From NCBI GenBank assembly GCA_040285855.1, contig JAUFOQ010000013.1, positions 496,001 to 560,000 of the forward strand: a stretch of DNA of 64,000 nt, given 5' to 3'. Below are positions 14,873 through 63,836 of this stretch, piece after piece; within the stretch, counting starts at the first letter, position 1, and every line of letters begins with the position of its first letter. The translations under genes and the position numbers were made by a program. A model generated the notes under the pieces. That model saw only the letters and a list, made by a program, of their open reading frames with translations. It made no database searches and was not told the origin of the DNA. This DNA comes from Eukaryota sp. GEM-RC1 (lineage: Eukaryota).

Positions 14873-15675
14873 TCATAGAATCAATCGCTTTAAAGTCGCG
14901 ATCTCTCCTGAACTCTCTACCATTGATTTTAACGACTGTTGTGTTTGACTGTTGATTGAGTTGTAATCTAGATTGATCGTAGAAACTGAAGAATTCACCT
15001 TCAAAGCTTCAGCAATTGCAATAGCTCCTTCAGGACCAATTGAGTTGTTACCTAGATCGATCGTAGAAACTGAAGAATTCACCTTCAAAGCTTCAGCAAT
15101 TGCAATAGCTCCTTCATTACCAATTGAGTTGTTATATAGATGGATCGTAGAAACTGAAGAATTCACCTTCAAAGCTTCAGCAATTGCAATAGCTCCTTCA
15201 TTACCAATTGAGTTTTCAGCTAGATAAATCTCAGAAACTGAAGAATTCACCTTCAAAGCTTCAGCAATTGCAATAGCTCCTTCATTACCAATTGAGTTGT
15301 TCCATAGATAAATCTCAGAAACTGAAGAATTCACCTTCAAAGCTTCAGCAATTGCAATAGCTCCTTCATTACCAATTGAGTTGTTATCTAGATAAATCGC
15401 AGAAACTGAAGAATTCACCTTCAAAGCTTCAGCAATTGCAATAGCTCCTTCATTACCAATTGAGTTGCCACCTAGATAAATCTCAGAAACTGAACAATTC
15501 ACCTTCAAAGCTTCAGCAATTGCAATAGCTCCTTCACTACCAATTGAATTGTGCCTTAGATAAATCGTAGAAACTGCAGAATTCACCTTCAAAGCTTCAG
15601 CAATTGCAATAGCTCCTTCAGGACCAATTGAGTTGTAATCTAGATTGATCGTAGAAACCTCATATTTCTCACCAT
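14873..15675 (-). pseudogene. LRR cassette, terminal unit of array 1; no in-frame ATG; unique C-terminus
   Basis: The open LRR frame begins at EVSTINLDYN. The ATG homologue is out of frame because of a 2-bp insertion (aaat-at-gag). It ends SLKSMVESSGEIATLKRLIL. Confidence 0.85.
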
Positions 15676-16005
15676 TTCATCTCAACAATTTTAATAATGA
15701 AACTGTACATTGGGAATTCGATGGTAAATGTATAGTAGAAATTACCAATTCTTCAGATACTAATGAAGTTCTGTTGTTGTTGTGAACAATAACAAAAGTA
15801 CCAGTAAATAACGTGTGTTATTCATTAGGGCAGTATTTAAAATCTGTACTTGAACATTTGCTAAACTACTATGATATTTGACTCTGTCACGGAGTTTTGT
15901 TTGGAATAATTTTTGGTCTGAGGAAAATGATTTTTCAAGTGTGTATTATACTCAACGATTAATTATGGTACTTTTGATGAGAGATTAATTATGATTAATG
16001 ACAAA

Positions 16006-16589
16006 ACTATATGTTTAAGGCTAATGGTTTTCATGGAAAAATTGAACCTTTACTTGCTAATCTTTCTGATCAGCCAAAAGTTGATAGAAGTCGTGGTGAT
16101 TTGATTGGTCCTTGGTTATCTTGTTAGGATATTATCATGGATTTCACGACTGTTGATCCTTGTAATTCAAGATCAATTTCCAAAATTTTTGATGATGATT
16201 TTTCTGCTCTTGAAGTGGCTGAAAAAGGAAAAAATACAAAGTACTGTCACTTAATTAACCAATTGAATGTTGACAGGTACAATTCTTTTGTGTTTCAACC
16301 TTTTGCGATGTCGATATATGGTAATATTGGACCAGCTGCACAAGGTTTTTTAACCTCCTTTGGTAAATTGTGTTCTGAGTATGGTAAAGTTTTTAATGAA
16401 AATTTTTGGTTGAGTAGGTTAACGTTTGCGTTGTTTCGTTCAATGCACAGACATTTTAATTCAATTTTAGGTAAGTTGTTCGGTGATGGACAGAAGGATC
16501 ATAGTTTAGATACTTTAGTTAGTGTCTGTTAGTTATTAACTTCTGCAAATGCATTTATTTCACTGATTGATCATAAACCCCGTTTTTTT
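16006..16589 (+). mobile_element. 5'-truncated RLE-type non-LTR retrotransposon fragment in cassette spacer (copy 1)
   Basis: EP..RGDL..DFTTVDP..AEKGKNTKY..FQPFAMSIYGNIGPAAQGFL..FW..RL.FAL.R. Flanked by an atgacaaa duplication that is single-copy in empty spacers. In-frame TAG. Confidence 0.8.
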
Positions 16590-16626
16590 ATGACAAATGT
16601 GATTTTTATATACAATGAAAACTTGT

Positions 16627-17489
16627 TTAAAAAGATATTCTATTTTTGTGTAGTGATTTTAACGACTGTTGTGTTTGACTGTTGATTGAGTTGTTATGTA
16701 GATAAATCGTAGAAACTGAAGAATTCACCTTCAAAGCTTCAGCAATTGCAATAGCTCCTTCACTACCAATTGAGTTGTTACCTAGAGAAATCGTAGAAAC
16801 TGAAGAATTCACCTTCAAAGCTTCAGCAATTGCAATAGCTCCTTCACTACCAATTGAGTTGTTACCTAGAGAAATCGTAGAAACTGAAGAATTCACCTTC
16901 AACGCTTCAGCAATTGCAATAGCTCCTTCACTACCAATTGAGTTGTTACCTAGAGAAATCGTAGAAACTGAAGAATTCACCTTCAACGCTTCAACAATTG
17001 CAATAGCTCCTTCATTACCAATTGAGTTGTCACCTAAACCAATCGTAGAAACTGAAGAATTCACCTTCAAAGCTTCAGCAATTGCAATAGCTCCTTCATT
17101 ACCAATTGAGTTGTTCCATAGATAAATCTCAGAAACTGAAGAATTCACCTTCAAAGCTTCAGCAATTGCAATAGCTCCTTCATTACCAATTGAGTTGTTA
17201 TCTAGATAAATCGCAGAAACTGAAGAATTCACCTTCAAAGCTTCAGCAATTGCAATAGCTCCTTCATTACCAATTGAGTTGCCACCTAGATAAATCTCAG
17301 AAACTGAACAATTCACCTTCAAAGCTTCAGCAATTGCAATAGCTCCTTCACTACCAATTGAATTGTGCCTTAGATAAATCGTAGAAACTGCAGAATTCAC
17401 CTTCAAAGCTTCAGCAATTGCAATAGCTCCTTCAGGACCAATTGAGTTGTAATCTAGATTGATCGTAGAAACCTCATATTTCTCACCAT
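16627..17489 (-). pseudogene. LRR cassette, no in-frame ATG, KNRISF end
   Basis: Open LRR frame (ORF track 259 aa from TTG); same 2-bp insertion at the 5' junction. Confidence 0.85.
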
Positions 17490-17819
17490 TTCATCTCAAC
17501 AATTTTAATAATGAAACTGTACATTGGGAATTCGATGGTAAATGTATAGTAGAAATTAACAATTCTTCAGATACTAATGAAGTTCTGTTGTTGTTGTGAA
17601 CAATAACAAAAGTACCAGTAAATAACGTGTGTTATTCATTAGGGCAGTATTTAAAATCTGTACTTGAACATTTGCTAAACTACTATGATATTTGACTCTG
17701 TCACGGAGTTTTGTTTGGAATAATTTTTGGTCTGAGGAAAATGATTTTTCAAGTGTGTATTATACTCAACGATTAATTATGGTACTTTTGATGAGAGATT
17801 AATTATGATTAATGACAAA

Positions 17820-18401
17820 ACTATATGTTTAAGGCTAATGGTTTTCATGGAAAAATTGAACCTTTACTTGCTAATCTTTCTGATCAGCCAAAAGTTGATA
17901 GAAGTCGTGGTGATTTGATTGGTCCTTGGTTATCTTGTTAGGAAATTATCGTGGATTTCACGACTGTTGATCCTTGTAATTCAAGATCAATTTCCAAAAT
18001 TTTTGATGATGATTTTTCTGCTCTTGAAGTGGCTGAAAAGGAAAAAATACAAAGTACTGTCACTTAATTAACCAATTGAATGTTGACAGGTACAATTCTT
18101 TTGTGTTTCAACCTTTTGCGATGTCGATATATGGTAATATTGGACCAGCTGCACAAGGTTTTTTAACCTCCTTTGGTAAATTGTGTTCTGAGTATGGTAA
18201 AGTTTTTAATGAAAATTTTTGGTTGAGTAGGTTAACGTTTGCGTTGTTTCGTTCAATGCACAGACATTTTAATTCAATTTTAGGTAAGTTGTTCGGTGAT
18301 GGACAGAAGGATCATAGTTTAGATACTTTAGTTAGTGTCTGTTAGTTATTAACTTCTGCAAATGCATTTATTTCACTGATTGATCATAAACCCCGTTTTT
18401 T
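17820..18401 (+). mobile_element. RLE retrotransposon fragment (copy 2)
   Basis: Near-identical to 16006-16589 with the same flanks. Confidence 0.8.
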
Positions 18402-18438
18402 ATGACAAATGTGATTTTTATATACAATGAAAACTTGT

Positions 18439-19553
18439 TTAAAAAGATATTCTATTTTTGTGTAGTGATTTTAACGACTGTTGTGTTTGACTGTTGATTG
18501 AGTTGTTATGTAGATAAATCGTAGAAACTGAAGAATTCACCTTCAAAGCTTCAGCAATTGCAATAGCTCCTTCAGGACCAATTGAATTGTTATATAGATA
18601 AATCTGAGAAACTGAAGAATTCACCTTCAAAGCTTCAGCAATTGCAATAGCTCCTTCACTACCAATTGAGTTGTTACCTAGAGAAATCGTAGAAACTGAA
18701 GAATTCACCTTCAAAGCTTCAGCAATTGCAATAGCTCCTTCACTACCAATTGAGTTGTTACCTAGAGAAATCGTAGAAACTGAAGAATTCACCTTCAACG
18801 CTTCAGCAATTGCAATAGCTCCTTCACTACCAATTGAGTTGTTACCTAGAGAAATCGTAGAAACTGAAGAATTCACCTTCAACGCTTCAACAATTGCAAT
18901 AGCTCCTTCATTACCAATTGAGTTGTCACCTAAACCAATCGTAGAAACTGAAGAATTCACCTTCAAAGCTTCAGCAATTGCAATAGCTCCTTCATTACCA
19001 ATTGAGTTGTTATATAGATAAATCTGAGAAACTGAAGAATTCACCTTCAAAGCTTCAGCAATTGCAATAGCACCTTCATTACCAATTGAGTTATTACCTA
19101 GATCGATCGTAGAAACTGAAGAATTCACCTTCAAAGCTTCAGCAATTACAATAGCTCCTTCATTACCAATTGAGTTGTTCCATAGATAAATCTCAGAAAC
19201 TGAAGAATTCACCTTCAAAGCTTCAGCAATTGCAATAGCTCCTTCATTACCAATTGAGTTGTTATCTAGATAAATCGCAGAAACTGAAGAATTCACCTTC
19301 AAAGCTTCAGCAATTGCAATAGCTCCTTCATTACCAATTGAGTTGCCACCTAGATAAATCTCAGAAACTGAACAATTCACCTTCAAAGCTTCAGCAATTG
19401 CAATAGCTCCTTCACTACCAATTGAATTGTGCCTTAGATAAATCGTAGAAACTGCAGAATTCACCTTCAAAGCTTCAGCAATTGCAATAGCTCCTTCAGG
19501 ACCAATTGAGTTGTAATCTAGATTGATCGTAGAAACCTCATATTTCTCACCAT
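18439..19553 (-). pseudogene. LRR cassette, no in-frame ATG, KNRISF end
   Basis: Open LRR frame (343 aa from TTG). Confidence 0.85.
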
Positions 19554-19883
19554 TTCATCTCAACAATTTTAATAATGAAACTGTACATTGGGAATTCGAT
19601 GGTAAATGTATAGTAGAAATTAACAATTCTTCAGATACTAATGAAGTTCTGTTGTTGTTGTGAACAATAACAAAAGTACCAGTAAATAACGTGTGTTATT
19701 CATTAGGGCAGTATTTAAAATCTGTACTTGAACATTTGCTAAACTACTATGATATTTGACTCTGTCACGGAGTTTTGTTTGGAATAATTTTTGGTCTGAG
19801 GAAAATGATTTTTCAAGTGTGTATTATACTCAACGATTAATTATGGTACTTTTGATGAGAGATTAATTATGATTAATGACAAA

Positions 19884-20467
19884 ACTATATGTTTAAGGCT
19901 AATGGTTTTCATGGAAAAATTGAACCTTTACTTGCTAATCTTTCTGATCAGCCAAAAGTTGATAGAAGTCGTGGTGATTTGATTGGTCCTTGGTTATCTT
20001 GTTAGGAAATTATCATGGATTTCACGACTGTTGATCCTTGTAATTCAAGATCAATTTCCAAAATTTTTGATGATGATTTTTCTGCTCTTGAAGTGGCTGA
20101 AAAAGGAAAAAATACAAAGTACTGTCACTTAATTAACCAATTGAATGTTGACAGGTACAATTCTTTTGTGTTTCAACCTTTTGCGATGTCGATATATGGT
20201 AATATTGGACCAGCTGCACAAGGTTTTTTAACCTCCTTTGGTAAATTGTGTTCTGAGTATGGTAAAGTTTTTAATGAAAATTTTTGGTTGAGTAGGTTAA
20301 CGTTTGCGTTGTTTCGTTCAATGCACAGACATTTTAATTCAATTTTAGGTAAATTGTTCGGTGATGGACAGAAGGATCATAGTTTAGATACTTTAGTTAG
20401 TGTCTGTTAGTTATTAACTTCTGCAAATGCATTTATTTCACTGATTGATCATAAACCCCGTTTTTTT
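19884..20467 (+). mobile_element. RLE retrotransposon fragment (copy 3)
   Basis: Near-identical to 16006-16589 with the same flanks. Confidence 0.8.
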
Positions 20468-20504
20468 ATGACAAATGTGATTTTTATATACAATGAAAAC
20501 TTGT

Positions 20505-21451
20505 TTAAAAAGATATTCTATTTTTGTGTAGTGATTTTAACGACTGTTGTGTTTGACTGTTGATTGAGTTGTTATGTAGATAAATCGTAGAAACTGAAGA
20601 ATTCACCTTCAAAGCTTCAGCAATTGCAATAGCTCCTTCACTACCAATTGAGTTGTTACCTAGAGAAATCGTAGAAACTGAAGAATTCACCTTCAAAGCT
20701 TCAGCAATTGCAATAGCTCCTTCACTACCAATTGAGTTGTTACCTAGAGAAATCGTAGAAACTGAAGAATTCACCTTCAACGCTTCAGCAATTGCAATAG
20801 CTCCTTCACTACCAATTGAGTTGTTACCTAGAGAAATCGTAGAAACTGAAGAATTCACCTTCAACGCTTCAACAATTGCAATAGCTCCTTCATTACCAAT
20901 TGAGTTGTCACCTAAACCAATCGTAGAAACTGAAGAATTCACCTTCAAAGCTTCAGCAATTGCAATAGCTCCTTCATTACCAATTGAGTTGTCACCTAAA
21001 CCAATCGTAGAAACTGAAGAATTCACCTTCAAAGCTTCAGCAATTGCAATAGCTCCTTCATTACCAATTGAGTTTTCAGCTAGATAAATCTCAGAAACTG
21101 AAGAATTCACCTTCAAAGCTTCAGCAATTGCAATAGCTCCTTCATTACAAATTGAGTTGTTCCATAGATAAATCTCAGAAACTGAAGAATTCACCTTCAA
21201 AGCTTCAGCAATTGCAATAGCTCCTTCATTACCAATTGAGTTGTTATCTAGATAAATCGCAGAAACTGAACAATTCACCTTCAAAGCTTCAGCAATTGCA
21301 ATAGCTCCTTCACTACCAATTGAATTGTGCCTTAGATAAATCGTAGAAACTGCAGAATTCACCTTCAAAGCTTCAGCAATTGCAATAGCTCCTTCAGGAC
21401 CAATTGAGTTGTAATCTAGATTGATCGTAGAAACCTCATATTTCTCACCAT
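20505..21451 (-). pseudogene. LRR cassette, no in-frame ATG, KNRISF end
   Basis: Open LRR frame (287 aa from TTG). Confidence 0.85.
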
Positions 21452-21781
21452 TTCATCTCAACAATTTTAATAATGAAACTGTACATTGGGAATTCGATGG
21501 TAAATGTATAGTAGAAATTAACAATTCTTCAGATACTAATGAAGTTCTGTTGTTGTTGTGAACAATAACAAAAGTACCAGTAAATAACGTGTGTTATTCA
21601 TTAGGGCAGTATTTAAAATCTGTACTTGAACATTTGCTAAACTACTATGATATTTGACTCTGTCACGGAGTTTTGTTTGGAATAATTTTTGGTCTGAGGA
21701 AAATGATTTTTCAAGTGTGTATTATACTCAACGATTAATTATGGTACTTTTGATGAGAGATTAATTATGATTAATGACAAA

Positions 21782-22366
21782 ACTATATGTTTAAGGCTAA
21801 TGGTTTTCATGGAAAAATTGAACCTTTACTTGCTAATCTTTCTGATCAGCCAAAAGTTGATAGAAGTCGTGGTGATTTGATTGGTCCTTGGTTATCTTGT
21901 TAGGGAAATTATCGTGGATTTCACGACTGTTGATCCTTGTAATTCAAGATCAATTTCCAAAATTTTTGATGATGATTTTTCTGCTCTTGAAGTGGCTGAA
22001 AAAGGAAAAAATACAAAGTACTGTCACTTAATTAACCAATTGAATGTTGACAGGTACAATTCTTTTGTGTTTCAACCTTTTGCGATGTCGATATATGGTA
22101 ATATTGGACCAGCTGCACAAGGTTTTTTAACCTCCTTTGGTAAATTGTGTTCTGAGTATGGTAAAGTTTTTAATGAAAATTTTTGGTTGAGTAGGTTAAC
22201 GTTTGCGTTGTTTTGTTCAATGCACAGACATTTTAATTCAATTTTAGGTAAGTTGTTCGGTGATGGACAGAAGGATCATAGTTTAGATACTTTAGTTAGT
22301 GTCTGTTAGTTATTAACTTCTGCAAATGCATTTATTTCACTGATTGATCATAAACCCCGTTTTTTT
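21782..22366 (+). mobile_element. RLE retrotransposon fragment (copy 4)
   Basis: Near-identical to 16006-16589 with the same flanks. Confidence 0.8.
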
Positions 22367-22403
22367 ATGACAAATGTGATTTTTATATACAATGAAAACT
22401 TGT

Positions 22404-22825
22404 TTAAAAAGATATTCTATTTTTGTGTAGTGATTTTAACGACTGTTGTGTTTGACTGTTGATTGAGTTGTTATGTAGATAAATCGTAGAAACTGAAGAA
22501 TTCACCTTCAAAGCTTCAGCAATTGCAATAGCTCCTTCACTACCAATTGAGTTGTTACCTAGAGAAATCGTAGAAACTGAAGCAATTGCAATAGCTCCTT
22601 CATTACCAATTGAGTTTTCAGCTAGATAAATCTCAGAAACTGAAGAATTCACCTTCAAAGCTTCAGCAATTGCAATAGCTCCTTCATTACCAATTGAGGT
22701 GTTTTCTAGATAAATCTGAGAAACTGAAGAATTCACCTTCAAAGCTTCAGCGATTGCAATAGCTCCTTCATTACCAATTGAGTTGTAATCTAGATTGATC
22801 GTAGAAACCTCATATTTCTCACCAT
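22404..22825 (-). pseudogene. Short LRR cassette with an in-frame internal deletion
   Basis: ..EGAIAIA-SVSTISLGNN.. lacks EALKVNS; KNRISF end. Confidence 0.85.
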
Positions 22826-22993
22826 TTCATCTCAACAATTTTAATAATGAAACTGTACATTGGGAATTCGATGGTAAATGTATAGTAGAAATTAACAATT
22901 CTTCAGATACTAATAAAGTTCTGTTGTTGTTGTGAACAATAACAAAAGTACCAGTAAATAACGTGTGTTATTCATTAGGGCAGTATTTAAAAT

Positions 22994-23209
22994 TTGAGTT
23001 GTTATCTAGATGGATCGTAGAAACTGAAGAATTCACCTTCAAAGCTTCAGCAATTGCAATAGCTCCTTCATTACCAATTGAGTTGTTATATAGATAAATC
23101 TCAGAAACTGAAGAATTCACCTTCAAAGCTTCAGCAATTGCAATAGCTCCTTCATTACCAATTGAGTTGTAATCTAGATTGATCGTAGAAACCTCATATT
23201 TCTCACCAT
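22994..23209 (-). pseudogene. 3'-truncated LRR cassette immediately downstream of the TRIM-LRR gene
   Basis: Two and a half repeats are fused directly to mid-spacer sequence (cagtatttaaaat|ttgagttg); no C-cap. Confidence 0.85.
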
Positions 23210-23568
23210 TTCATCTCAACAATTTTAATAATGAAACTGTACATTGGGAATTCGATGGTAAATGTATAGTAGAAATTAACAATTCTTCAGATACTAATAA
23301 AGTTCTGTTGTTGTTGTGAACAATAACAAAAGTACCAGTAAATAACGTGTGTTATTCATTAGGGCAGTATTTAAAATCTGTACTTGAACATCTGCTAAAC
23401 TACTATGATATTTGACTCTGTCACGGAGTTTTGTTTGGGATAATGTTTGTTCTGAGCAAAATGATTTTTCAAGTGTGTATTATATTCACCGATTAATTAT
23501 GGGACTTTTGATGAGAAATTAATTATGATTAATGACAAATGTGATTTTTATATACAATGAAAACTTGT

Positions 23569-25356
23569 TTAAAAATCCATTCTATTTTTGTGTAGTGATT
23601 TTAACGACTGTTGTGTTTGACTGTTGATTGAGTTGTTATATAGATAAATCTGAGAAACTGAAGCATTCACCTTCAGAGCTTCAGCAATTGCAATAGCTCC
23701 TTCATTACCAATTGAGTTTGCAGCTAGATAAATCTCAGAAACTGAAGAATTCACCTTCAAAGCTTCAGCAATTGCAATAGCTCCTTCATTACCAATTGAG
23801 TTGTTTCCTAGATAAATCGTAGAAACTGAAGAATTCACCTTCAAAGCTTCAGCAATTGCAATAGCTCCTTCATTACCAATTGAGTTGTCCCATAGATAAA
23901 TCTCAGAAACTGAAGAATTCACCTTCAAAGATTCAGCAATTGCAATTGCTCCTTCAGGACCAATTGAGTTGTTATATAGATTGATCGTAGAAACTGAAGA
24001 ATTCACCTTCAAAGCTTCAGCAATTGCAATAGCTCCTTCAGGACCAATTGAGTTGTTTTGTAGATTGATCGTAGAAACTGAAGAATTCACCTTCAAAGCT
24101 TCAGCAATTGCAATAGCTCCTTCATTACCAATTGAGTTGTCCCATAGATAAATCTCAGAAACTGAAGAATTCACCTTCAAAGATTCAGCAATTGCAATTG
24201 CTCCTTCAGGACCAATTGAGTTGTTATATAGATTGATCGTAGAAACTGAAGAATTCACCTTCAAAGCTTCAGCAATTGCAATAGCTCCTTCATTACCAAT
24301 TGAGTTGTTATCTAGATAAATCGTAGAAACCTCATTTCTCACCATTTCATCATAACAATTCTTCAACTTCGAACTAAGCTCGTTCCAATCAATAACAAGC
24401 TCCTTCTCTTCAACTTGTTGTACAGGACAAACACTTGTAATAGACTTGATTGGTGAAGGAGTGTCATCTAGAAGCCTAGCAGAAGCAACATTGGACTCCG
24501 AAACAACGGAAAGAGAGGCCAAACGACGAGAAGCTTCGGAGTGGATAGAGCAAAGTTCTTCATTTAAAGAGGAAATGATAGCAGATTGGTTGTTAAGTAG
24601 GGTGGAAGTTGTGGTAATGAAGTTTTCGCCGATCTTTGGTTTAAAGATAACAGGCTTACCTGATTTTAAGTCATTCATGATGGTAACAGAGTCTAACATA
24701 GTTTCTTGCAGCATATCAGTTAGAGTTTCTTTCATTTGAGCAAATCCAGATGCCGCTTGTTGGAGAGCATTTTCTGTACACTTTCCGACGGTTTCTACAG
24801 CAACGGCTAGTTCTTGATTGATGGCATTAATGCCATGTTCTACAGCAGATCTTCCTTCGTCAAACGGAAGCAAATTCTTCTTGTGCTGGTCGTGGTCCCC
24901 AAGGATAGCACAAATTGAGCAAAGCGCAACAGAACAAGAAGTACAGAAGAGGTCAAAGGATTTGGACGGATGGATCGGACATTTAGGCACAATGGAGGCG
25001 TGTTTCTTTTGCAGCGGAATTGCAACGTGGGTACGTAAGAGTTTCGGCCGATGAATGTCCTTAAAACATTGGTCGCATAAATCAGCGTCACATTCTGCGC
25101 AATAACAAGTGGCAACAGCTTCATCACACTCAATACAAATAGACTCACCCTGACCAGCAACGAAGGCTTCAACAGCTTCTTTCAACTTGTAGTTAGGACA
25201 CAGCCTTGACTTGTCCACTTCAGCTCTACAAATTGGACATCCGTCATGAGAAACAAGCCACTCCTGTAAATCCGACATACAAAAGGTGTGGCCACACCAA
25301 GTAGTTACCGGATTCTTGAGAATTTCATGACATATATCACATAGATAGTGAGACAT
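23569..25356 (-). CDS. TRIM-like E3 ubiquitin ligase: RING, B-box, B-box, coiled coil, then 8 RI/NLRC3-like 28-aa LRRs plus cap (595 aa)
   Basis: RING CDIC..CGHTFCMSD..CPIC; B-box CIEC..CYCAEC..LCDQC..H..H; B-box CPIH..LFCTSC..LCSIC..H..H; helical linker; repeats of LKVNSSVSxIxLxxNSIGxEGAIAIAEA. Uninterrupted ORF with ATG. Confidence 0.92.
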   Translation of the reverse strand: MSHYLCDICHEILKNPVTTWCGHTFCMSDLQEWLVSHDGCPICRAEVDKSRLCPNYKLKEAVEAFVAGQGESICIECDEAVATCYCAECDADLCDQCFKDIHRPKLLRTHVAIPLQKKHASIVPKCPIHPSKSFDLFCTSCSVALCSICAILGDHDQHKKNLLPFDEGRSAVEHGINAINQELAVAVETVGKCTENALQQAASGFAQMKETLTDMLQETMLDSVTIMNDLKSGKPVIFKPKIGENFITTTSTLLNNQSAIISSLNEELCSIHSEASRRLASLSVVSESNVASARLLDDTPSPIKSITSVCPVQQVEEKELVIDWNELSSKLKNCYDEMVRNEVSTIYLDNNSIGNEGAIAIAEALKVNSSVSTINLYNNSIGPEGAIAIAESLKVNSSVSEIYLWDNSIGNEGAIAIAEALKVNSSVSTINLQNNSIGPEGAIAIAEALKVNSSVSTINLYNNSIGPEGAIAIAESLKVNSSVSEIYLWDNSIGNEGAIAIAEALKVNSSVSTIYLGNNSIGNEGAIAIAEALKVNSSVSEIYLAANSIGNEGAIAIAEALKVNASVSQIYLYNNSINSQTQQSLKSLHKNRMDF

Positions 25357-30438: not shown

Positions 30439-33400
30439 CTAAGTTTTCAATGATTGCAAAGGATTCATCTTGATATCCGTGATCCCACTGATTTCTGGCT
30501 TTTTAATTTTTGAATTGCGTTTAAAAAACTGTTTAAACTGTTCTTTGTTCCTCATAAAGATATCCTCCGTCAATTCCAACAGAAAAGCAAACACACCAGA
30601 CATACCAGCTACAGTACCAAGGACTGTCCCTGCTAAGGTCATAAAGGTACGTGATGCAGACCTATCAGTCATTAATGCTAAAGAGAATGAATGGAACTGA
30701 AACTCCACTTTAAAACCAGTAGCGTGGTGGAATTGAGTGTTAGAGACAACAGAACCTGCAGAAGCAGATTCAAATCGAAGGTGATATCCTGTATTAGAAT
30801 TGGAGGGTTCAACATTGTCAGTGAAGACAGAAGGAATTAACTCGTATGAAAACACACTAGGATTATTCCCTTTCAAAACCATATTCTGAGGAGCACTCAC
30901 TGAAGAAGAGATGTTAGAGAAGGCGTTAGGAAGTGAAGCAAATGTTGAAATGTTAACAGCGACTGCATTGGCGTACGATGCTTCGTTGTTTGATTGGATA
31001 GAAAGTGAACTGATTGAGTTAGTTAACTGACAATCAAAATCAACTGAAATGAGACACGAATCAACAGAAGTTCCATCACCTATTGATGACGTGATGGTTG
31101 CCGGACAATCCACACCATTAGTTTGCAAAACAAACGACTCATTGGAACAACCAGTTGAATATCCTTGAAATTCTATAACAAAGAAACCATGAAAAGTAAA
31201 GTTTTTGGGTGTTAAAAACACTGGTTCTAAAGTTCGAGTATATGAAATATTGTCATATTGATATTCAAAAAACAAACTGCTTGCCATGAATAGAAGTCCT
31301 GCTATAAATAACCATGAATAAAATCCTCCTAGTTTAGTTTCTCGTTGGATAATTGGTTGGTTGTTTTCGGTATAATGACTTTGATTAAAAAAAATCAAAA
31401 TATCTAAAGAATGGTCCTTCACTTATGACAACGGAAGCAATAATTAACAGCGTCACAGCCAGAATCAGCAAATACAGAGCAATTGTTGAATATTCTTCTA
31501 GTTTTGCTAGTTGAGACGGTGGAAGTTCGGGTTGTTCTGAAATAAAATCTACCGTTGCATCCTCGCTTGAAAGTGGAACAACACTTCCAACAGGGCAATA
31601 CTTATCCTCTGGGCATGGTTCACAGTGAGAAGAACCATAGTTAGGATTATAAGTAGAGAAAGGACATGGGATGCATGACTCAAATCCATTTCCACCAATG
31701 AAATCACTGAAAAACCAGGATCACAAGGTGCAACTAGTGCCATTGCTTGAATAAACACCATAAAGCCCATTCTCACAGGCAACGCAACCTCCAAGCTCAT
31801 CAGCAGCACTACCAATAAAGCAATCAAATTCGCAATCAATAATCAGAAAATCAGAACAGGTCAGATTCATGATTGCAATTGCTGATAAAGGAGATGCTGG
31901 TGATCGCTCCCTGAGGATATGAGAATTACCACCATACCTCACAACTGAGTTTTGAAATGCAACTACGGTATAATCAGTATCAGTAAAGAAATCATTATCA
32001 TTAATGATTCCAAACGTGATACGGGAATCTTCAGTTTCCAATTTGGGAATACTGAAGAAATTTGTGATCCTAGGGATAAAGTCTCTATCATGACCACCAA
32101 AAATTAAAATGTTATTACCAAACTGAATTAAGTTGAAGGTGTGTACCTGGTTTCGGAATCTAAAAGGTTGGTAAAACCATCTTTTTGATTAGAACCATCA
32201 CGTGTTAAGCTATCAGGAGATATTTTCCATAGGTAGGTTTGATTGGCGTTGCGTGAATCATCCCGACCCCCAATCAGCATGACGTATGGATCATCAGTTT
32301 GGGCAACTAGAAGAGAACACCGATCCATTGGAGGAGGCCAGACTTCCTCTGACGTTTGAGAGATTTGAGTCCACCTGCCGGTCTGAAGATTGAGTGAGTA
32401 GAGCTCAGAAGAACGTGACGAAGCAGTGGCACCTCCGTAAACTATTAAAGAATGTTCATACACTGAACAACAAGCATAAGAACGAGGACTTGGAGGTGAT
32501 CCTTCAGTGACAAACCAAGTAAACTCTCGTGACACGTGGTCAAAAAGATGACGTCATTGGTGAGATCAGAAGTTGAAACAGTTTCCCCTCCAAATTGAAC
32601 AATTCTAGTACCATATACAACGCTACAATGACCAACACGGAGTGGTGGTGCATAAGAGCTTTGAACTTCTAGATAATTCCAAGAATACGTCATCAAGTCA
32701 AAATAATAGACATTCATATCACGTATATCACGAGAAAACGGACGACTTCCTCCAAGTACAAACATCTTTGTTCCAACTACAACTGATGAGTGACCAAATG
32801 TCCTTGGCGGAGTCGTTATTGAAGGAGATACAAGGTTAAAGTCAGCATAGGTAGGTGTCATATCTAACAATTCAGGATCGAACTCCAAAATAGAATTCTC
32901 TACTTGATCAAAGTAATCACCACCAAACAGATACAGTTTATCATTGATAACAAACGGAGTAGAACTAGAGTCCAGTCTAAACATTGAACCATCTCTTCTC
33001 ATTCTAAGCTGATCCCATGTCCAAGTTGAGATGTTGTTGTCATTAGTTGAAAGAACTTGTAGGATAGCAAAGTTAGCAACAAAGGGGTAAGTTGTAGCTA
33101 TACCCCAACCTCCAAAGATGAGAAGCTTTTGATTAATGAAAAGTAAGAATCTGAAATTCTTGTTGGTGCACCCGTAATTATGTCAGTTATATTTTCATAA
33201 AGAGAATATACTGAAAGTAAACTGTCATTTAACAAGTCAATCTCTACTGTTGCAATCCAGGTATGAAAATCATAACTAACTACCAAAGCTCTCAGAGTAA
33301 ACACGTGTGGTGACGTTTCAACCATGGACTGTACCACCATGTTTGCACCTTTGCGTCCCACTTCTAGTTCAATGTCTGATAGAGTCTTGACTTCATAAAA

Positions 33401-33820
33401 AGTAAGAGTTTCAAAGTCAAACAGCCATAAAGCTGAGGTAGGTGTAGGTATATAAGGGGAAGTAAGAGCAGGAAGTGTAAGCACGAGAGCAAACTCGTGA
33501 TCATTCAAAGAGAACTGGAAACTAGAAAGTACAGCACGCAGAGGAAGTTGTTGGCCTTGTGGAGGGGTAGATCGCCAACAAAGAGACTCGAAACTCCAGA
33601 TATAGATATCAGTAGAAGGAGCGTTGTTCAGTTCTCCACCGAATTGAATTATTTGAGACTTATAGTGCCACAGACAACCTCCAGAAGGTGGTAATGTACC
33701 AGCAGAGGGATATTGAAGCAAGAACTTAGAGCTCTCGGTTCAAGGAATTAAAGACCAGTCTGGTGAAGAAACCATAATTCAAAGAGATCGTCATCATGTT
33801 GGTCAATGCCACCCCAGAAG
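30439..33820 (-). pseudogene. Kelch-repeat, Cys-rich membrane protein, broken by several frameshifts and stops and by a hAT insertion
   Basis: Kelch GG motifs (IIQFGG, LYLFGG, MFVLGG, IVQFGG, LIVYGG, VMLIGG), CxxC-rich segment (GCVACENGLYG..C..CDPGF) and TM segments in ORF 30439-31422. The coding frame continues beyond the hAT at 34830-34867. Confidence 0.8.
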
Positions 33821-34829
33821 CAGGGATGAGGTAAAAATTATTCCAGTGAGAAATAATTCCCGTATTATATACGGGATTACGGTACGGCTTCTCTTTTTGT
33901 TACGGGAGTACGGACAGAAAATATTTTCCGTAATTTTCTCAGTCTTCTAAATCAAGGGAAAAATCCGGACGCTCCAGCTGACCAGGATCTGAAGACTACA
34001 TCAACAACAATGCATTGCTAGAAAATTACATCTGCATCTTGAATATATTCTTGCTGGAAACAAAGGTTGTTCAACGTCTGTTCAGTATTGCAAAACACCT
34101 CTTGGGTTCGTTTAGAAACAGGTTAACTCCTGAACCACTGGCAATGGAACTGTTTCTCAGATCGAATAAAAAGTTGTGGGATGAAGAAGTTCTTCGTAAA
34201 GCTTTGACTCTGAAACCAATAATAGAAGTACATATAACTGATTAATAGTAATAAACAGTTTATTGATGGAGGCTACAAAAATACATATAATTATAACAGC
34301 TATGAAACTCTAGCCACCCAAAATTCCTGGTCAACAGTACCACAGTTTTAATACCACTTTGTGACAATTGAATTAAAAACTTGGGCATCGAACGGAACAA
34401 AGAAACAACCAAACGGTTATGCCAAATTGATAAGTTAAATTTCTTATTCTGAGACTTACACATAGATCCGAAATCAGTTAAAAACTTAGAAACCATTTCA
34501 CTAATGCTACCAAAAATCGAAATAGCAAGCGGAACAAATACAAATTTTGAATAGAAATTTTGATTGAGTTTAGCATTATTATTTATTTTTGGAATACAAA
34601 TGATTTTTACTTTTTGGCTGTTTCTAGGTGGTTCAAACCTTTGAATTTAATCCATTAACTTAATTGATTAATAGTGATCCTTTGTATCAATTTAATATAG
34701 TTTTGTCATCCTTTGTTTAGTAAATGTACGGAAAGAATATATTCACCGTATATTCCACAGTACGGAATAATTTACGGCAAGACAAAAACAGAGTCCGTAT
34801 TACGGCCATAAATTCTACCCCATCCCCTG
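33821..34829 (+). mobile_element. Non-autonomous hAT element with a nested antisense RLE-retrotransposon fragment
   Basis: TIRs cagggatgaggta / taccccatcccctg. Imperfect 8-bp TSD cccagaag/actagaag. tacgg subterminal repeats. ORF 34015-34245 reads VQRLFSIAK..RNRLTPE..LFLRSNKKLW. Confidence 0.8.
34260..34710 (-). mobile_element. RLE-type retrotransposon 3' fragment, related but diverged family
   Basis: FVFVPLAISIFGSISEMVSKFLTDFG..W..RLVVSLFRSM parallels the ORF at 16137-16532. Confidence 0.7.
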
Positions 34830-34867: not shown

Positions 34868-35036
34868 TGTTTCTGTACCTTATCAATAACGTGTTTTGTT
34901 TTTCAGATAGTCTACACAATAAATATCCAATACTGGGTCACTTAGTTAATTTTACATAATTTACTCAATTTAAGATGTACAAAAAGCAGTTTTGTGTTTT
35001 GACACAAAGACAAAAACTTTGTATTGACAACAACAC
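34868..35036. repeat. Dispersed repeat beginning TGTTTCTGTACC, copy A
   Basis: Aligns with 63837-64000 over the whole available length, with scattered mismatches. Confidence 0.85.
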
Positions 35037-54046: not shown

Positions 54047-54741
54047 TTAAAAATACTTTCTATTTTTGTGTAGTGATTTTAACGACTGTTGTGTTTGACT
54101 GTTGATTGAGTTGTTACCTAGAAAAATCGTAGAAACTGAAGAATTCACCTTCAAAGCTTCAGCAATCGCAATAGCTCCTTCATTACCAATTGAGTTTTCA
54201 GCTAGATAAATCTCAGAAACTGAAGAATTCACCTTCAAAGCTTCAGCAATTGCAATAGCTCCTTCATTACCAATTGAGTTGGTCCATAGATTGATCGTAG
54301 AAACTGAAGAATTCACCTTCAAAGCTTCAGCAATTGCAATAGCTCCTTCATTACCAATTGAGTTGTAATCTAGATCGATCCTAGAAACTGAGGAATTCAC
54401 CTTCAAAGCTTCAGCAATTGCAATAGCTCCTTCAGGACCAATTGAGTTGGTCCATAGATTGATCGTAGAAACTGAAGAATTCACCTTCAAAGATTCAGCA
54501 ATTGCAATAGCTCCTTCAGGACCAATTGAGTTGTTATCTAGATGGATCGTAGAAACTGAAGAATTCACCTTCAAAGCTTCAGCAATTGCAATAGCTCCTT
54601 CATTACCAATTGAGTTGTTATATAGATAAATCTCAGAAACTGAAGAATTCACCTTCAAAGCTTCAGCAATTGCAATAGCTCCTTCATTACCAATTGAGTT
54701 GTAATCTAGATTGATCGTAGAAACCTCATATTTCTCACCAT
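54047..54741 (-). pseudogene. LRR cassette of array-1 type, no in-frame ATG
   Basis: Carries the aaat-at-gag 2-bp insertion; KNRKYF end. Confidence 0.8.
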
Positions 54742-55101
54742 TTCATCTCAACAATTTTAATAATGAAACTGTACATTGGGAATTCGATGGTAAATGTATA
54801 GTAGAAATTAACAATTCTTCAGATACTAATAAAGTTCTGTTGTTGTTGTGAACAATAACAAAAGTACCAGTAAATAACGTGTGTTATTCATTAGGGCAGT
54901 ATTTAAAATCTGTACTTGAACATCTGCTAAACTACTATGATATTTGACTCTGTCACGGAGTTTTGTTTGGGATAATGTTTGTTCTGAGCAAAATGATTTT
55001 TCAAGTGTGTATTATATTCACCGATTAATTATGGGACTTTTGATGAGAAATTAATTATGATTAATGACAAATGTTATTTTTTATATACAATGAAAACTTG
55101 T

Positions 55102-55878
55102 TTAAAAATCCATTCTATTTTTGTGTAGTGATTTTAACGACTGTTGTGTTTGACTGTTGATTGAGTTGTTATCTAGAAAAATCGTAGAAACTGAAGAATT
55201 CACCTTCAAAGCTTCAGCAATCGCAATAGCTCCTTCATTACCAATTGAGTTGTTACATAGATAAATCTGAGAAACTGAAGCATTCACCTTCAAAGCTTCA
55301 GCAATTGCAAAAGCTCCTTCATTACCAATTGAGTTGGTCCATAGATTGATCGTAGAAACTGAAGAATTCACCTTCAAAGATTCAGCAATTGCAATAGCTC
55401 CTTCAGGACCAATTGAGTTGTTATCTAGATGGATCGTAGAAACTGAAGAATTCACCTTCAAAGCTTCAGCAATTGCAATAGCTCCTTCATTACCAATTGA
55501 GTTGTTATATAGATAAATCTCAGAAACTGAAGAATTCACCTTCAAAGCTTCAGCAATTGCAATAGCTCCTTCATTACCAATTGAGTTGGTACATAGATTG
55601 ATCGTAGAAACTGAAGAATTGACCTTCAAAGATTCAGCAATTGCAATAGCTCCTTCAGTACCAATTGAGTTGTTAAATAGATAAATCTTAGAAACTGAAG
55701 AATTCACCTTCAAAGCTTCAGCAATTGCAATAGCTCCTTCATTACCAATTGAGTTGTTATATAGATAAATCGTAGAAACTGAAGAATTCACCTTCAAAGC
55801 TTCAGCCATTGCAATAGCTCATTCAGTACCAATTGAGTTGTTATATAGATTGATCGTAGAACTCTCATTTCTCAACAT
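55102..55878 (-). pseudogene. Chimeric LRR cassette with a nonsense codon in the first repeat and a TRIM1-type KNRMDF end
   Basis: GGA>TGA at about 55820; the downstream frame is open for 235 aa. Confidence 0.8.
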
Positions 55879-56237
55879 TTCGTCTCAACAATTTTAATAA
55901 TGAAACTGTACATTGGTAATTCGATGGTAAATGTACGGTATCATTTAACAATATTTCAGATACTAATAAATTTCTGTTGCTGTTGAGAACAATAGCAAAA
56001 GTACCAGTAAATAACGTGTGTTATTCACCAGGGTAGTATTTAAAATCTGTACTTGAACATCTGCTAAACTACTATGATATTTCACTCTGTCACGGAGTTT
56101 TGTTTGGGATAATGATTGTTCTGAGCTAAAGGATTTTTCAAGTGTGTATTATATTCACCGATTAATTATGGTACTTTTGATGAGAAATTAATTATGATTA
56201 ATGACAAATGTGATTTTTATATACAATGAAAACTTGT

Positions 56238-56876: not shown

Positions 56877-57234
56877 TTCGTCTCAACAATTTTAATAATG
56901 AAACTGTACATTGGTAATTCGATGGTAAATGTACGGTATCATTTAACAATATTTCAGATACTAATAAATTTCTGTTGCTGTTGAGAACAATAGCAAAGTA
57001 CCAGTAAATAACGTGTGTTATTCACCAGGGTAGTATTTAAAATCTGTACTTGAACATCTGCTAAACTACTATGATATTTCACTCTGTCACGGAGTTTTGT
57101 TTGGGATAATGATTGTTCTGAGCTAAAGGATTTTTCAAGTGTGTATTATATTCACCGATTAATTATGGTACTTTTGATGAGAAATTAATTATGATTAATG
57201 ACAAATGTGATTTTTATATACAATGAAAACTTGT

Positions 57235-57873: not shown

Positions 57874-58231
57874 TTCGTCTCAACAATTTTAATAATGAAA
57901 CTGTACATTGGTAATTCGATGGTAAATGTACGGTATCATTTAACAATATTTCAGATACTAATAAATTTCTGTTGCTGTTGAGAACAATAGCAAAGTACCA
58001 GTAAATAACGTGTGTTATTCACCAGGGTAGTATTTAAAATCTGTACTTGAACATCTGCTAAACTACTATGATATTTCACTCTGTAACGGAGTTTTGTTTG
58101 GGATAATGATTGTTCCGAGCTAAAGGATTTTTCAAGTGTGTATTATATTCACCGATTAATTATGGTACTTTTGATGAGAAATTAATTATGATTAATGACA
58201 AATGTGATTTTTATATACAATGAAAACTTGT

Positions 58232-59404: not shown

Positions 59405-59763
59405 TTCGTCTCAACAATTTTAATAATGAAACTGTACATTGGTAATTCGATGGTAAATGTACGGTATCATTTAACAATATTTCAGATACTAATAAATTTC
59501 TGTTGCTGTTGAGAACAATAGCAAAAGTACCAGTAAATAACGTGTGTTATTCACCAGGGTAGTATTTAAAATCTGTACTTGAACATCTGCTAAACTACTA
59601 TGATATTTCACTCTGTAACGGAGTTTTGTTTGGGATAATGATTGTTCCGAGCTAAAGGATTTTTCAAGTGTGTATTATATTCACCGATTAATTATGGTAC
59701 TTTTGATGAGAAATTAATTATGATTAATGACAAATGTGATTTTTATATACAATGAAAACTTGT

Positions 59764-60204
59764 TTAAAAATACATTCTATTTTTGTGTAGTGATTTTAAC
59801 GACTGTTGTGTTTGACTGTTGATTGAGTTGTTACCTAGATCGATCGCAGAAACTGAAGAATTCACCTTCAACACTTCAGCAATTGCAATAGCTCCTTCAA
59901 CACCAATTGAGTTGTAATCTAGATTGATCTTAGAAACTGAAGAATTCACCTTCAACGCTTCAGCAATTGCAATAGCTCCTTCAACACCAATTGAGTTGAA
60001 ACCTAGATTGATCTTAGAAACTGAAGAATTTACCTTCAAAGCTTCAGCAATTGCAATAGCTCCTTCAGTACCAATTGAGTTGTTAAATAGATAAATCGCA
60101 GAAACTGAAGAATTCACCTTCAAAGCTTCAGCAATTGCAATAGCTCCTTCATTACCAATTGAGTTGTTATATAGATTGATCGTAGAACTCTCATTTCTCA
60201 ACAT
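59764..60204 (-). CDS. LRR-only cassette ORF, 146 aa
   Basis: Intact. Confidence 0.7.
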   Translation of the reverse strand: MLRNESSTINLYNNSIGNEGAIAIAEALKVNSSVSAIYLFNNSIGTEGAIAIAEALKVNSSVSKINLGFNSIGVEGAIAIAEALKVNSSVSKINLDYNSIGVEGAIAIAEVLKVNSSVSAIDLGNNSINSQTQQSLKSLHKNRMYF

Positions 60205-60563
60205 TTCGTCTCAACAATTTTAATAATGAAACTGTACATTGGTAATTCGATGGTAAATGTACGGTATCATTTAACAATATTTCAGATACTAATAAATTTC
60301 TGTTGCTGTTGAGAACAATAGCAAAAGTACCAGTAAATAACGTGTGTTATTCACCAGGGTAGTATTTAAAATCTGTACTTGAACATCTGCTAAACTACTA
60401 TGATATTTCACTCTGTAACGGAGTTTTGTTTGGGATAATGATTGTTCCGAGCTAAAGGATTTTTCAAGTGTGTATTATATTCACCGATTAATTATGGTAC
60501 TTTTGATGAGAAATTAATTATGATTAATGACAAATGTGATTTTTATATACAATGAAAACTTGT

Positions 60564-61511
60564 TTAAAAATACATTCTATTTTTGTGTAGTGATTTTAAC
60601 GACTGTTGTGTTTGACTGTTGATTGAGTTGTTACCTAGATCGATCGCAGAAACTGAAGAATTCACCTTCAACACTTCAGCAATTGCAATAGCTCCTTCAA
60701 CACCAATTGAGTTGTAATCTAGATTGATCTTAGAAACTGAAGAATTCACCTTCAACGCTTCAGCAATTGCAATAGCTCCTTCAACACCAATTGAGTTGAA
60801 ACCTAGATTGATCTTAGAAACTGAAGAATTTACCTTCAAAGCTTCAGCAATTGCAATAGCTCCTTCAGTACCAATTGAGTTGTTAAATAGATAAATCGCA
60901 GAAACTGAAGAATTCACCTTCAAAGCTTCAGCAATTGCAATAGCTCCTTCAGTACCAATTGAGTTCGCAATAGCTCCTTCAGGACCAATTGAGTTGATAT
61001 CTAGAAAAATCGTAGAAACTGAAGAATTCACCTTCAAAGCTTCAGCAATCGCAATAGCTCCTTCAGGACCAATTGAGTTCGCAATAGCTCCTTCAGGACC
61101 AATTGAGTTCGCAATAGCTCCTTCAGGACCAATTGAGTTGATATCTAGAAAAATCGTAGAAACTGAAGAATTCACCTTCAAAGCTTCAGCAATCGCAATA
61201 GCTCCTTCAGGACCAATTGAGTTGTTATCAAGAAAAATCGTAGAAACTGAAGAATTCACCTTCAAAGCTTCAGCAATCGCAATAGCTTCTTCAACACCAA
61301 TTGAGTTGAAACCTAGATAAATCTCAGAAACTGAAGAATTCACCTTCAAAGATTCAGCAATTGCAATAGCTCCTTCATTACCAATTGAGTTGTTCCTTAG
61401 ATCGATCGTAGAAACTGAAGAATTCACCTTCAAAGATTCAGCAATTGCAATAGCTCCTTCAGGACCAATTGAGTTGTTATCTAGATAAATCGTAGAAACC
61501 TCATTTCTCAC
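60564..61511 (-). pseudogene. LRR cassette, open frame of 315 codons but no ATG
   Basis: 5' end reads TGA GAT GAA AGG GTG AGA AAT GAG (ATG>AGG). Confidence 0.8.
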
Positions 61512-61872
61512 CCTTTCATCTCAACAATGTCAATAATGAAACTGTACATTGGTAATTCGATGGTAAATGTATAGTAGAAATTAACAATACTTCAGATACT
61601 AATAAATTTCTGTTGCTGTTGAGAACAATAGCAAAGTACCAGTAAATAACGTGTGTTATTCACCAGGGTAGTATTTAAAATCTGTACTTGAACATCTGCT
61701 AAACTACTATGATATTTCACTCTGTCACGGAGTTTTGTTTGGGATAATGATTGTTCTGAGCTAAAGGATTTTTCAAGTGTGTATTATATTCACCGATTAA
61801 TTATGGTACTTTTGATGAGAAATTAATTATGATTAATGACAAATGTGATTTTTATATACAATGAAAACTTGT

Positions 61873-62820
61873 TTAAAAATACATTCTATTTTTGTGCAGT
61901 GATTTTAACGTCTGTTGTGTTTGACTGTTGATTGAGTTGTTACCTAGATCGATCGCAGAAACTGAAGAATTCACCTTCAACGCTTCAGCAATTGCAATAG
62001 CTCCTTCAACACCAATTGAGTTGTAATCTAGATTGATCTTAGAAACTGAAGAATTCACCTTCAACGCTTCAGCAATTGAAATAGCTCCTTCAACACCAAT
62101 TGAGTTGAAACCTAGATTGATCTTAGAAACTGAAGAATTTACCTTCAAAGCTTCAGCAATTGCAATAGCTCCTTCAGTACCAATTGAGTTGTTAAATAGA
62201 TAAATCGTAGAAACTGAAGAATTCACCTTCAAAGCTTCAGCAATTGCAATAGCTCCTTCAGTACCAATTGAGTTCGCAATAGCTCCTTCAGGACCAATTG
62301 AGTTGTTATCTAGAAAAATCGTAGAAACTGAAGAATTCACCTTCAAAGCTTCAGCAATCGCAATAGCTCCTTCAGGACCAATTGAGTTCGCAATAGCTCC
62401 TTCAGGACCAATTGAGTTCGCAATAGCTCCTTCAGGACCAATTGAGTTGATATCTAGAAAAATCGTAGAAACTGAAGAATTCACCTTCAAAGCTTCAGCA
62501 ATCGCAATAGCTCCTTCAGGACCAATTGAGTTGTTATCAAGAAAAATCGTAGAAACTGAAGAATTCACCTTCAAAGCTTCAGCAATCGCAATAGCTTCTT
62601 CAACACCAATTGAGTTGAAACCTAGATAAATCTCAGAAACTGAAGAATTCACCTTCAAAGATTCAGCAATTGCAATAGCTCCTTCATTACCAATTGAGTT
62701 GTTCCTTAGATCGATCGTAGAAACTGAAGAATTCACCTTCAAAGATTCAGCAATTGCAATAGCTCCTTCAGGACCAATTGAGTTGTTATCTAGATAAATC
62801 GTAGAAACCTCATTTCTCAC
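61873..62820 (-). pseudogene. LRR cassette, open frame of 315 codons but no ATG
   Basis: Same 5' end as 60564-61511; 1309-bp period. Confidence 0.8.
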
Positions 62821-63182
62821 CCTTTCATCTCAACAATGTCAATAATGAAACTGTACATTGGTAATTCGATGGTAAATGTATAGTAGAAATTAACAATACT
62901 TCAGATACTAATAAATTTCTGTTGCTGTTGAGAACAATAGCAAAAGTACCAGTAAATAACGTGTGTTATTCACCAGGGTAGTATTTAAAATCTGTACTTG
63001 AACATCTGCTAAACTACTATGATATTTCACTCTGTAACGGAGTTTTGTTTGGGATAATGATTGTTCCGAGCTAAAGGATTTTTCAAGTGTGTATTATATT
63101 CACCGATTAATTATGGTACTTTTGATGAGAAATTAATTATGATTAATGACAAATGTGATTTTTATATACAATGAAAACTTGT

Positions 63183-63836
63183 TTAAAAATACATTCTATT
63201 TTTGTGTAGTGATTTTAACGACTGTTGTGTTTGACTGTTGATTGAGTTGTTATCTAGATAAATCGTAGTAACTGAAGAATTCACCTTCAAAGCTTCAGCA
63301 ATTGCAATAGCTCCTTCATTACCAATTAAGTTGTTATATAGATTGATCGTAGAAACTGAAGAATTCACCTTCAAAGATTCAGCAATTGCAATAGCTCCTT
63401 CAGGACCAATTGAGTTGTTATCTAGATAAATCGTAGTAACTGAAGAATTCACCTTCAAAGCTTCAGCAATTGCAATAGCTCCTTCATTACCAATTGAGTT
63501 GTTATCTAGATAAATCGTAGAAACCTCATTTCTCACCATTTCATCATAACAATTCTTCAACTTCGAACTAAGCTTGCTCCAATCAATAACAAGCTCCTTC
63601 TCTTCAACTTGTTGTACAAGGCACACACTTTCAATAGACTTGATTGGCGAAGGAGTGTCATCTAGAAGCCTAGCAGAAGCAACATTGGACTCCGAAACAA
63701 CGGAAAGAGAGGCCAAACGACGAGAAGCTTCGGAGTGAATAGAGCAAAGTTCTTCATTTAAAGAGGAGATGATAGCGGATTGGTTGTTAAGTAGGGTGGA
63801 AGTTGTGGTAATGAAGTTTCCTCTTTCAATCTCACC
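63183..63836 (-). pseudogene. 3' half of a second TRIM-LRR paralogue (linker, 3 LRRs, cap), interrupted at its 5' side by a repeat
   Basis: NFITTTSTLLNNQSAIISSLNEELCSIHSEASRRLASLSVVSESN..KLKNCYDEMVRNEV is nearly identical to 24330-24624. The frame closes upstream within the repeat at 63837 onward. Confidence 0.85.

Follow-up and report, generated by a model that had tools for sequence, protein, structure and literature searches.

The NWD repeats of Podospora's het-d and het-e genes, which encode fungal NOD-like receptors (NLRs), are 80-100% identical and differ at a few hypervariable positions; they are gained, lost, shuffled and exchanged between genes, and those of pseudogenes are near intact (PMC13449251). 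In the brown alga Ectocarpus, recent ROCO paralogs are near identical apart from their reshuffled leucine-rich repeats (LRRs), of which there is one per exon, and are under positive selection, with an immune role that is unproven (PMC3341825, PMC11378527). Non-coding LRR copies, located in introns, have been proposed but not shown to act as a reservoir (PMC3341825). The vlsE gene of Borrelia lies beside contiguous silent vls cassettes which conserve the reading frame and in which dN exceeds dS at the variable sites (PMC3828179, PMC3585125); conversion is fast, one-way and directed into this single surface-antigen locus (PMC3828179). The variable lymphocyte receptors (VLRs) of lampreys and hagfish are built from LRR modules whose concave face varies, and an incomplete germline gene is assembled somatically, in a process linked to CDA1/2, from nearby cassettes of 1-3 modules in either orientation (PMC3308329). 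The locus described here lies in a 64,000-nucleotide stretch of DNA, referred to as the window (positions 496,001 to 560,000 of contig JAUFOQ010000013.1), from Eukaryota sp. GEM-RC1. This organism is a metamonad of the Skoliomonas type, and repeats make up 48% of its published assembly (PMC11316075). The locus consists of a TRIM-type gene and, beside it, 31 copies of the LRR end of that gene that lack a head; on balance these copies probably form a silent archive that exchanges variants with the expressed members of the family.

The best reading of the comparison is that the locus would be a repeat-shuffling receptor of the fungal NLR or brown algal kind with an adjacent reservoir similar to that of vls. 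Like the fungal repeats, the cassette modules are highly similar (mean identity 91%, minimum 82%, among the 81 distinct modules), have five hypervariable codons under diversifying selection, are gained and lost (nine against eleven modules on an identical RING, B-box and coiled-coil (RBCC) part) and share exact tracts across arrays. Unlike in the fungal NLRs, the repeats are LRRs of the ribonuclease-inhibitor type on a predicted RING/B-box ligase that has no nucleoside triphosphatase (NTPase) domain and is therefore not an NLR, and the silent copies are dedicated headless tandem units adjoining the gene. Paralogs that are near identical outside a reshuffled LRR domain and non-coding LRR copies are shared with brown algal ROCO genes, whereas the LRR open reading frame (ORF) is intronless here and its multi-module, capped copies follow the stop codon. 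As in Borrelia, an expressed-type gene adjoins contiguous, frame-conserving cassettes with an excess of non-synonymous change at variable sites, and the neutral appearance of their newest variants suggests that they are silent; unlike vlsE, the product is a predicted cytosolic ligase and there are several heads. VLRs resemble the locus in their modules with a variable concave face and their neighbouring LRR cassettes. The locus is nevertheless not a VLR, a parallel drawn in an earlier note on this DNA: nothing is missing from the gene, and its units are long (1-20 modules), mostly equipped with a C-cap and 3' flank, and all in one orientation. The arrangement may also bear a likeness to the variant surface glycoprotein cassettes of trypanosomes. 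Scrambling by ectopic recombination and the fusion of LRRs to other domains are shared with other protist LRR families, in which shuffling is exon-based and takes place among thousands of genes; the accessible accounts of these families mention no headless downstream arrays.

The TRIM-like gene and its headless LRR units

ORFs were obtained by six-frame translation, the 84-bp repeat was delineated with Tandem Repeats Finder and domains were assigned with Pfam; the repeat builds many minus-strand ORFs in the window. The intact gene, head 1 (P0001, 23569-25356, minus strand), is a complete ORF of 595 residues for which Pfam reports a RING (zf-C3HC4 and related families, above cut-off), two stretches of zf-B_box and LRR_6, confirming the TRIM-like architecture proposed for it earlier. 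The RING spans residues 6-43, B-box1 residues 74-110 and B-box2 residues 126-158. In the AlphaFold2 model these are followed by helices at 165-231 and 244-281, a disordered linker at 284-319, an N-cap helix, nine LRR modules of 28 residues and a C-cap. The model (mean predicted local distance difference test score (pLDDT) 84.8, predicted template modelling score 0.50) shows an LRR solenoid, and in fold it comes closest to axonemal LRR proteins, NOD2 and ribonuclease inhibitor. Among the PDB sequence matches of the N-terminal part are TRIM28 and TRIM3, the latter matching residues 125-232, and the Pfam family TRIM_CC gave no match. The sixth zinc ligand of the RING is Asp29, which is His in P0003 and P0004, and the last Cys is followed by Arg; the Cys and His ligands of the B-boxes are at least 90% conserved in 35 sequences. 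Neither Pfam nor the model reveals a NACHT or NB-ARC NTPase domain in head 1. By its RING and B-boxes head 1 is TRIM-like, with a predicted coiled coil, and the RING suggests that it may be an E3 ubiquitin ligase. As in other TRIM/RBCC ligases, a RING, both B-boxes and long helices precede a C-terminal domain of variable type, which here, unlike in the surveyed ligases, consists of LRRs (PMC3503706); the accessible text of that survey mentions neither 'LRR' nor 'leucine'.

Head 1 is followed on the minus strand by array 1 (14873-23236), with six headless units of 2-13 modules. Array 2 (about 35470-62850, minus strand), with 25 headless units of 1-20 modules and spacers of about 350 bp, lies further up in the window. 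Both counts agree with those of the earlier note, and all 31 units carry one common junction motif. A unit begins within the predicted N-cap helix, some 30 bp ahead of the first LRR, and continues through the LRRs, C-cap and stop codon into about 350 bp of the 3' flank of the gene. The short 5' homology described earlier is hence present, although limited to these roughly 30 bp, and the units lack an N-cap. Because all 31 units have the same junction and the spacer corresponds to the 3' flank of the head (for example 23237-23568, minus strand, the flank of head 1 itself), both arrays go back to one event in which the 3' end of a head was duplicated with its flank of about 350 bp; amplification and in-register recombination followed. 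In the annotated tail of P0010, a paralog of head 1, 17 of 18 residues correspond to translated spacer. At about 35470 the final spacer of array 2 continues into unique DNA.

Array 2 is headed by head 2 (63183-63836, minus strand), which contains the end of the helical region, the linker, four LRRs and a C-cap, and differs from head 1 by six synonymous and four non-synonymous codons over 294 bp. Its homology to head 1 ends near 63836. Joined to this broken end are 165 bp (63837-63999, minus strand) that match the sequence downstream of array 2 (34868-35032) at 91% identity. Head 2 is therefore not a gene cut by the edge of the window, and of the two TRIM-LRR genes thought to head arrays one is intact and the other is a 5'-broken paralog fragment.

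The cassettes comprise 268 module copies in 21,399 bp, and 30 of the 31 LRR strings are distinct at the DNA level. One unit (35924) has a single module, and 13 of the 31 carry a 30-nt in-frame insertion of ten residues, which in a modelled cassette is looped out of an intact solenoid (pLDDT 91.4). The arrays show recombination that keeps the module register. Exact tracts of 168-674 bp are shared with another unit by 28 of the 31, and four array-2 units share exact tracts of 148-174 bp with units of array 1. At least five units (55892, 54755, 53701, 50696 and 43036) appear by eye to fuse the start of one family to the end of another, and array 2 is pieced together from spacers and ends of several types. 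The spacers diverge by up to 12% (mean 5.8%) in shared block-like haplotypes and are mosaic, with 401 of 2,775 informative site pairs incompatible; they contain several 1-2-bp indels, whereas there are none in the 21.4 kb of cassette LRR.

Some units are near-identical sisters (46783, 45534 and 44285, each about one change apart), and in places neighbours differ by about one base in 1.25 kb. Like the frameshifts in two non-repeat genes of the window, this could indicate that most of what the arrays show is an artefact of assembling a repeat region from long reads. Such an explanation is scarcely credible. Every whole unit differs from every other, contrary to what a pure artefact would give, and the divergent spacer haplotypes, the unit-specific insertions and deletions and one target-site duplication speak against it as well, although the most similar sisters might still be miscounted.

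Selection on the LRR modules

The variation among the 81 distinct cassette modules is concentrated at codons 2, 4, 6, 7 and 12 of the 28-codon module, each of which encodes 6-10 different amino acids. Codons 2, 4, 6 and 7 lie on or right after the predicted beta-strand of the AlphaFold2 model, and the beta-strand side of LRR proteins is their concave ligand face. The non-synonymous and synonymous polymorphism per site (pN/pS) is 0.41/0.054 at the five hypervariable codons against 0.017/0.083 in the framework, and 27 of the 30 possible first- and second-position alleles are found at these five codons. The five codons were chosen post hoc, and the contrast was therefore retested on the LxxLxLxxNxL motif, using its six exposed positions. 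At these a-priori x positions pN/pS is 0.28/0.036, a contrast reached by 893 of 376,740 six-codon sets. Diversifying selection is therefore acting on the predicted concave face of the LRRs.

The framework, in turn, is constrained. It shows 22 of 152 possible non-synonymous or stop alleles, where about 60 would be expected from the age of the spacers on the assumption that spacer and module are equally old and no homogenisation takes place, and 16 of 55 possible synonymous alleles, where 22 would be expected. As homogenisation alone would lower both classes of allele equally, this pattern reflects constraint and not mere homogenisation. The rare alleles found only in cassettes (three copies or fewer) are divided differently, with four synonymous against 14 non-synonymous or stop alleles, compared to ten and five among the common cassette alleles (Fisher p=0.015, small counts), and may include base errors of the kind seen in the two frameshifted non-repeat genes. 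The newest variants thus look neutral, and the simplest reading is that the units are now unselected themselves and that their modules have passed through selected genes. The units are presumably not translated, with selection acting on the expressed heads and modules reaching the cassettes by recombination.

A mechanism similar to that of diversity-generating retroelements was considered on account of the invariant third positions of codons 2, 4 and 12. It was ruled out because randomisation does not extend to the Asn codons 8 and 25, because selection accounts for what is observed, and because a Pfam scan of window ORFs showed no reverse transcriptase.

An alternative in which the units are expressed would account for the stop codon and 3' flank of every intact unit and for the in-frame ATG near the start of 19 of the 31. 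They could be spliced to the RBCC part as alternative last exons, or could yield LRR proteins of their own that act as decoys or adaptors. In 22 of the 31 the junction moreover offers a GAG acceptor that would fit a phase-1 donor-like site at 24659. GAG is a poor splice acceptor, however, and all six units behind the intact head have a 2-nt insertion at their 5' end, are out of frame for this splice and have no start ATG. The missing N-cap and the neutral appearance of the newest variants count against this alternative too, as does an exact look-up which found none of ten of the 31 unit or fragment ORFs in the protein collection, a result that is uninformative if repeats were masked. Expression of the units is thus very unlikely, even though the LRR exons of brown algal ROCO genes are reported to be alternatively spliced (PMC11378527). 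Two RBCC-only protein models, P0009 and P0140, end at about residue 232-234 of the head, at the same donor-like site; their ends may reflect an intron, a breakpoint or errors that shift the frame.

Proposed exchange between heads and cassettes

The paralog P0010 is identical to head 1 over residues 1-306 and belongs to the same 90% cluster, and has eleven modules instead of nine with a single surface signature in common. With the same RBCC and another LRR string it supports this part of the interpretation in the earlier note, and the comparison implies that LRR strings turn over far faster than point mutation. The linker haplotype of P0010 matches that of head 2 at four of five sites, and P0010 carries an RH dipeptide and a TSGN module which are present in array-1 cassettes and absent from head 1. 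A second link is provided by the last modules of head 1, which recur in array 2 together with the C-cap, the spacer and the first cassette (22994-23800 against 54526-55333, minus strand) with 16 mismatches in 807 bp; 15 of these are in the LRR modules before the C-cap, and the remainder of the block has one mismatch and one indel. By this match the end of the head and the end of a cassette are of recent common ancestry, and the shared block may have moved in either direction. The earlier proposal that recombination or conversion swaps the LRR surface stands to the extent that at least one exchange or duplication ties the 3' end of head 1 to a cassette; in-register, in-frame exchange is found among units and between arrays, whereas transfer from a cassette into the gene is not borne out in the interior of head 1. 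A further database protein, P0130, appears by eye to join an N-terminus like that of the P0097 family to cassette-type LRRs and C-cap, and could be a sensor swap or a gene-model fusion.

It is proposed that the expressed TRIM-LRR heads would be under diversifying selection at their binding face, and that homologous recombination among modules of 91% identity, by unequal crossing-over and gene conversion, would carry variants between heads and silent units. Exchange would stay in frame because the repeat measures 84 bp. Swapped modules may then alter the target binding of the predicted ubiquitin ligase, with the arrays serving as an archive across generations and not as a programmed switch. Variants presumably also flow from cassette to head. 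The pressure may stem from biotic conflict with viruses, ingested bacteria or mobile elements, and the pattern of selection is suggestive of a role in defence. Among 13 head-like proteins, five of the 46 cassette surface signatures are present and 41 absent, and the common cassette residues K2, F6, F7, V12 and T12 occur in none of the 13; the arrays therefore hold unused diversity.

Several points weigh against the arrays being such an archive, beginning with the assumptions behind the expected allele numbers and the base errors that may be among the rare alleles. The sequence examined is one haplotype of one window. The longest exact match of the LRR part of head 1 to any cassette is 95 bp, compared to a median of 94 bp and a 95th percentile of 138 bp in the shuffled null. 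Four of its seven signatures are absent from the cassettes, and no recent multi-module tract from a cassette is visible in it. The 30-nt insertion and G14E, which many cassettes carry, are both absent from the head sequences read, and array 2 has no intact head inside the window. All selection signals could stem from copying from head to cassette alone. The units, which the earlier note rightly described as distinct strings, mostly with their own C-cap and stop, include many near-identical sisters and are broken in eight of 31 cases (55892, 43036, 41892, 41195, 38395, 36717, 23223 and 15689) through a stop codon, a shift of frame into the C-cap, the loss of part of the unit or the replacement of its end; in array 1, unit 23223 is truncated and unit 15689 ends in foreign sequence. 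A spacer insertion with an 8-bp target-site duplication has been amplified to four copies of 582-585 bp along with the array-1 units (16006-16589, 17820-18401, 19884-20467 and 21782-22366, plus strand). Finally, in a genome that is 48% repetitive (PMC11316075) tandem debris is to be expected.

Many of these points would be accounted for if a chance duplication of a 3' end had been expanded by unequal crossing-over into passive debris, whose units take up selected modules and return nothing that matters. The anatomy is that expected from one such duplication with unequal crossing-over in a repeat-rich genome, namely a single junction in all units, neutral-looking new variants, broken units and a co-amplified insertion, next to a head 1 without a multi-module cassette tract. 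An orphan LRR tail (3939-4120) and several family models that are short at the N-terminus fit this explanation as well. It is nonetheless doubtful. Homologous exchange would have no evident reason to be one-way, the 3' block of head 1 is common to a cassette and P0010 has motifs otherwise found in cassettes. The lack of 1-2-bp indels in the cassette LRRs, when the spacers have several, likewise speaks against it.

The opposite view, a dedicated system in which selected silent LRR cassettes are often copied into the TRIM-type ligase so that cells differ in ubiquitination specificity, is improbable; if true, it would amount to an adaptive-like anti-viral or anti-bacterial repertoire in a free-living single-celled metamonad. 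More improbable still is its programmed form, in which dedicated high-frequency conversion, as in Borrelia vlsE or lamprey VLRs, copies cassette tracts into the head and sets ligase specificity clone by clone. The adjacent same-frame silent cassettes, with pN exceeding pS at variable sites and constraint elsewhere, do recall the vls cassettes (PMC3828179), and the 41 signatures absent from sampled heads would be its reserve. Head 1, on the other hand, is no visible mosaic of local cassettes, there are several heads and no single expression site, and the number and order of units are unstable. No long inverted repeat was found in a spacer or at the heads, nor a canonical G-quadruplex pattern, and the window ORFs scanned with Pfam include no recombinase or deaminase.

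The archive that is preferred here touches on the question of how unicellular eukaryotes recognise intracellular invaders, with or without silent receptor reservoirs. The locus combines three features which together are unreported in the literature searched: an LRR sensor on a TRIM-type ligase, repeats that are near identical yet hypervariable at some positions, and silent arrays next to the gene. Since each cassette carries diagnostic variants, the direction and rate of transfer are directly measurable. If cassette transfer takes place, cassette diversification would extend from the surface antigens of parasites and the receptors of vertebrates to a cytosolic ubiquitin ligase; if it does not, the locus would be a clear case of the passive origin of an array.

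Family context and further features of the window

The closest named relatives of head 1 are proteins of Eukaryota sp. GEM-RC1. This type of LRR occurs in four of the best 150 RBCC relatives, all named GEM-RC1, from a search of 1.84 billion representatives. The other RBCC proteins with skoliomonad names (ten named) end in non-LRR domains, and the name GEM-RC1 is also attached to LRR proteins whose N-termini are kinases or of other kinds; several models within the LRR family are short at the N-terminus. The locus is real and unusual, and its TRIM-LRR architecture is found, among these best 150 RBCC relatives, only in skoliomonad-named proteins. No relatives of the locus were found in metagenomes, with a protein scan and a C-cap DNA pattern, or in viral contigs. 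TRIM-LRR, RBCC-LRR or RING-B-box-LRR proteins and arrays of this kind are unreported in the literature searched, which did not extend to subscription papers, and the accessible part of the genome preprint mentions neither 'leucine' nor 'ubiquitin'.

The insertion amplified in the array-1 spacers is likely the 3' end of a mobile element. Pfam and the PDB gave no name for it and its Atlas cluster is unnamed and mostly eukaryotic; two further relatives are found at 7738-8165 and 34380-34571 (86% identity in DNA, 44% in protein). Spacers of type C (for example at about 51900) contain a short motif like the fused branch point and acceptor of Trichomonas introns, without the final AG, which we presume to be there by chance. 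The orphan LRR tail, on the plus strand, has two modules, a C-cap and a stop, belongs to another subfamily with 71-85% DNA identity to the array modules, and has no head upstream.

Between the arrays, a Kelch-repeat gene for a Cys-rich membrane-anchored protein (30439-33739, minus strand) has several frameshifts, some in homopolymer runs, and is either a pseudogene or affected by base errors. A RING ORF with a Sina-like Pfam match (1012-2435, plus strand) is followed by a frameshift and a 390-residue ORF without a Pfam family, the two possibly forming one gene. The inspected frame changes of the Kelch and RING genes show no GT-AG introns and resemble frameshifts, several of them in homopolymer runs. 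A remnant of a hAT dimerisation domain is recognised by Pfam at 417-737 (minus strand), and a similar-looking remnant at 33982-34245, labelled hAT by eye, lies between 18-nt inverted arms 881 nt apart within 33880-34800. Just upstream of the RING ORF is an imperfect 60-bp palindrome (917-976).

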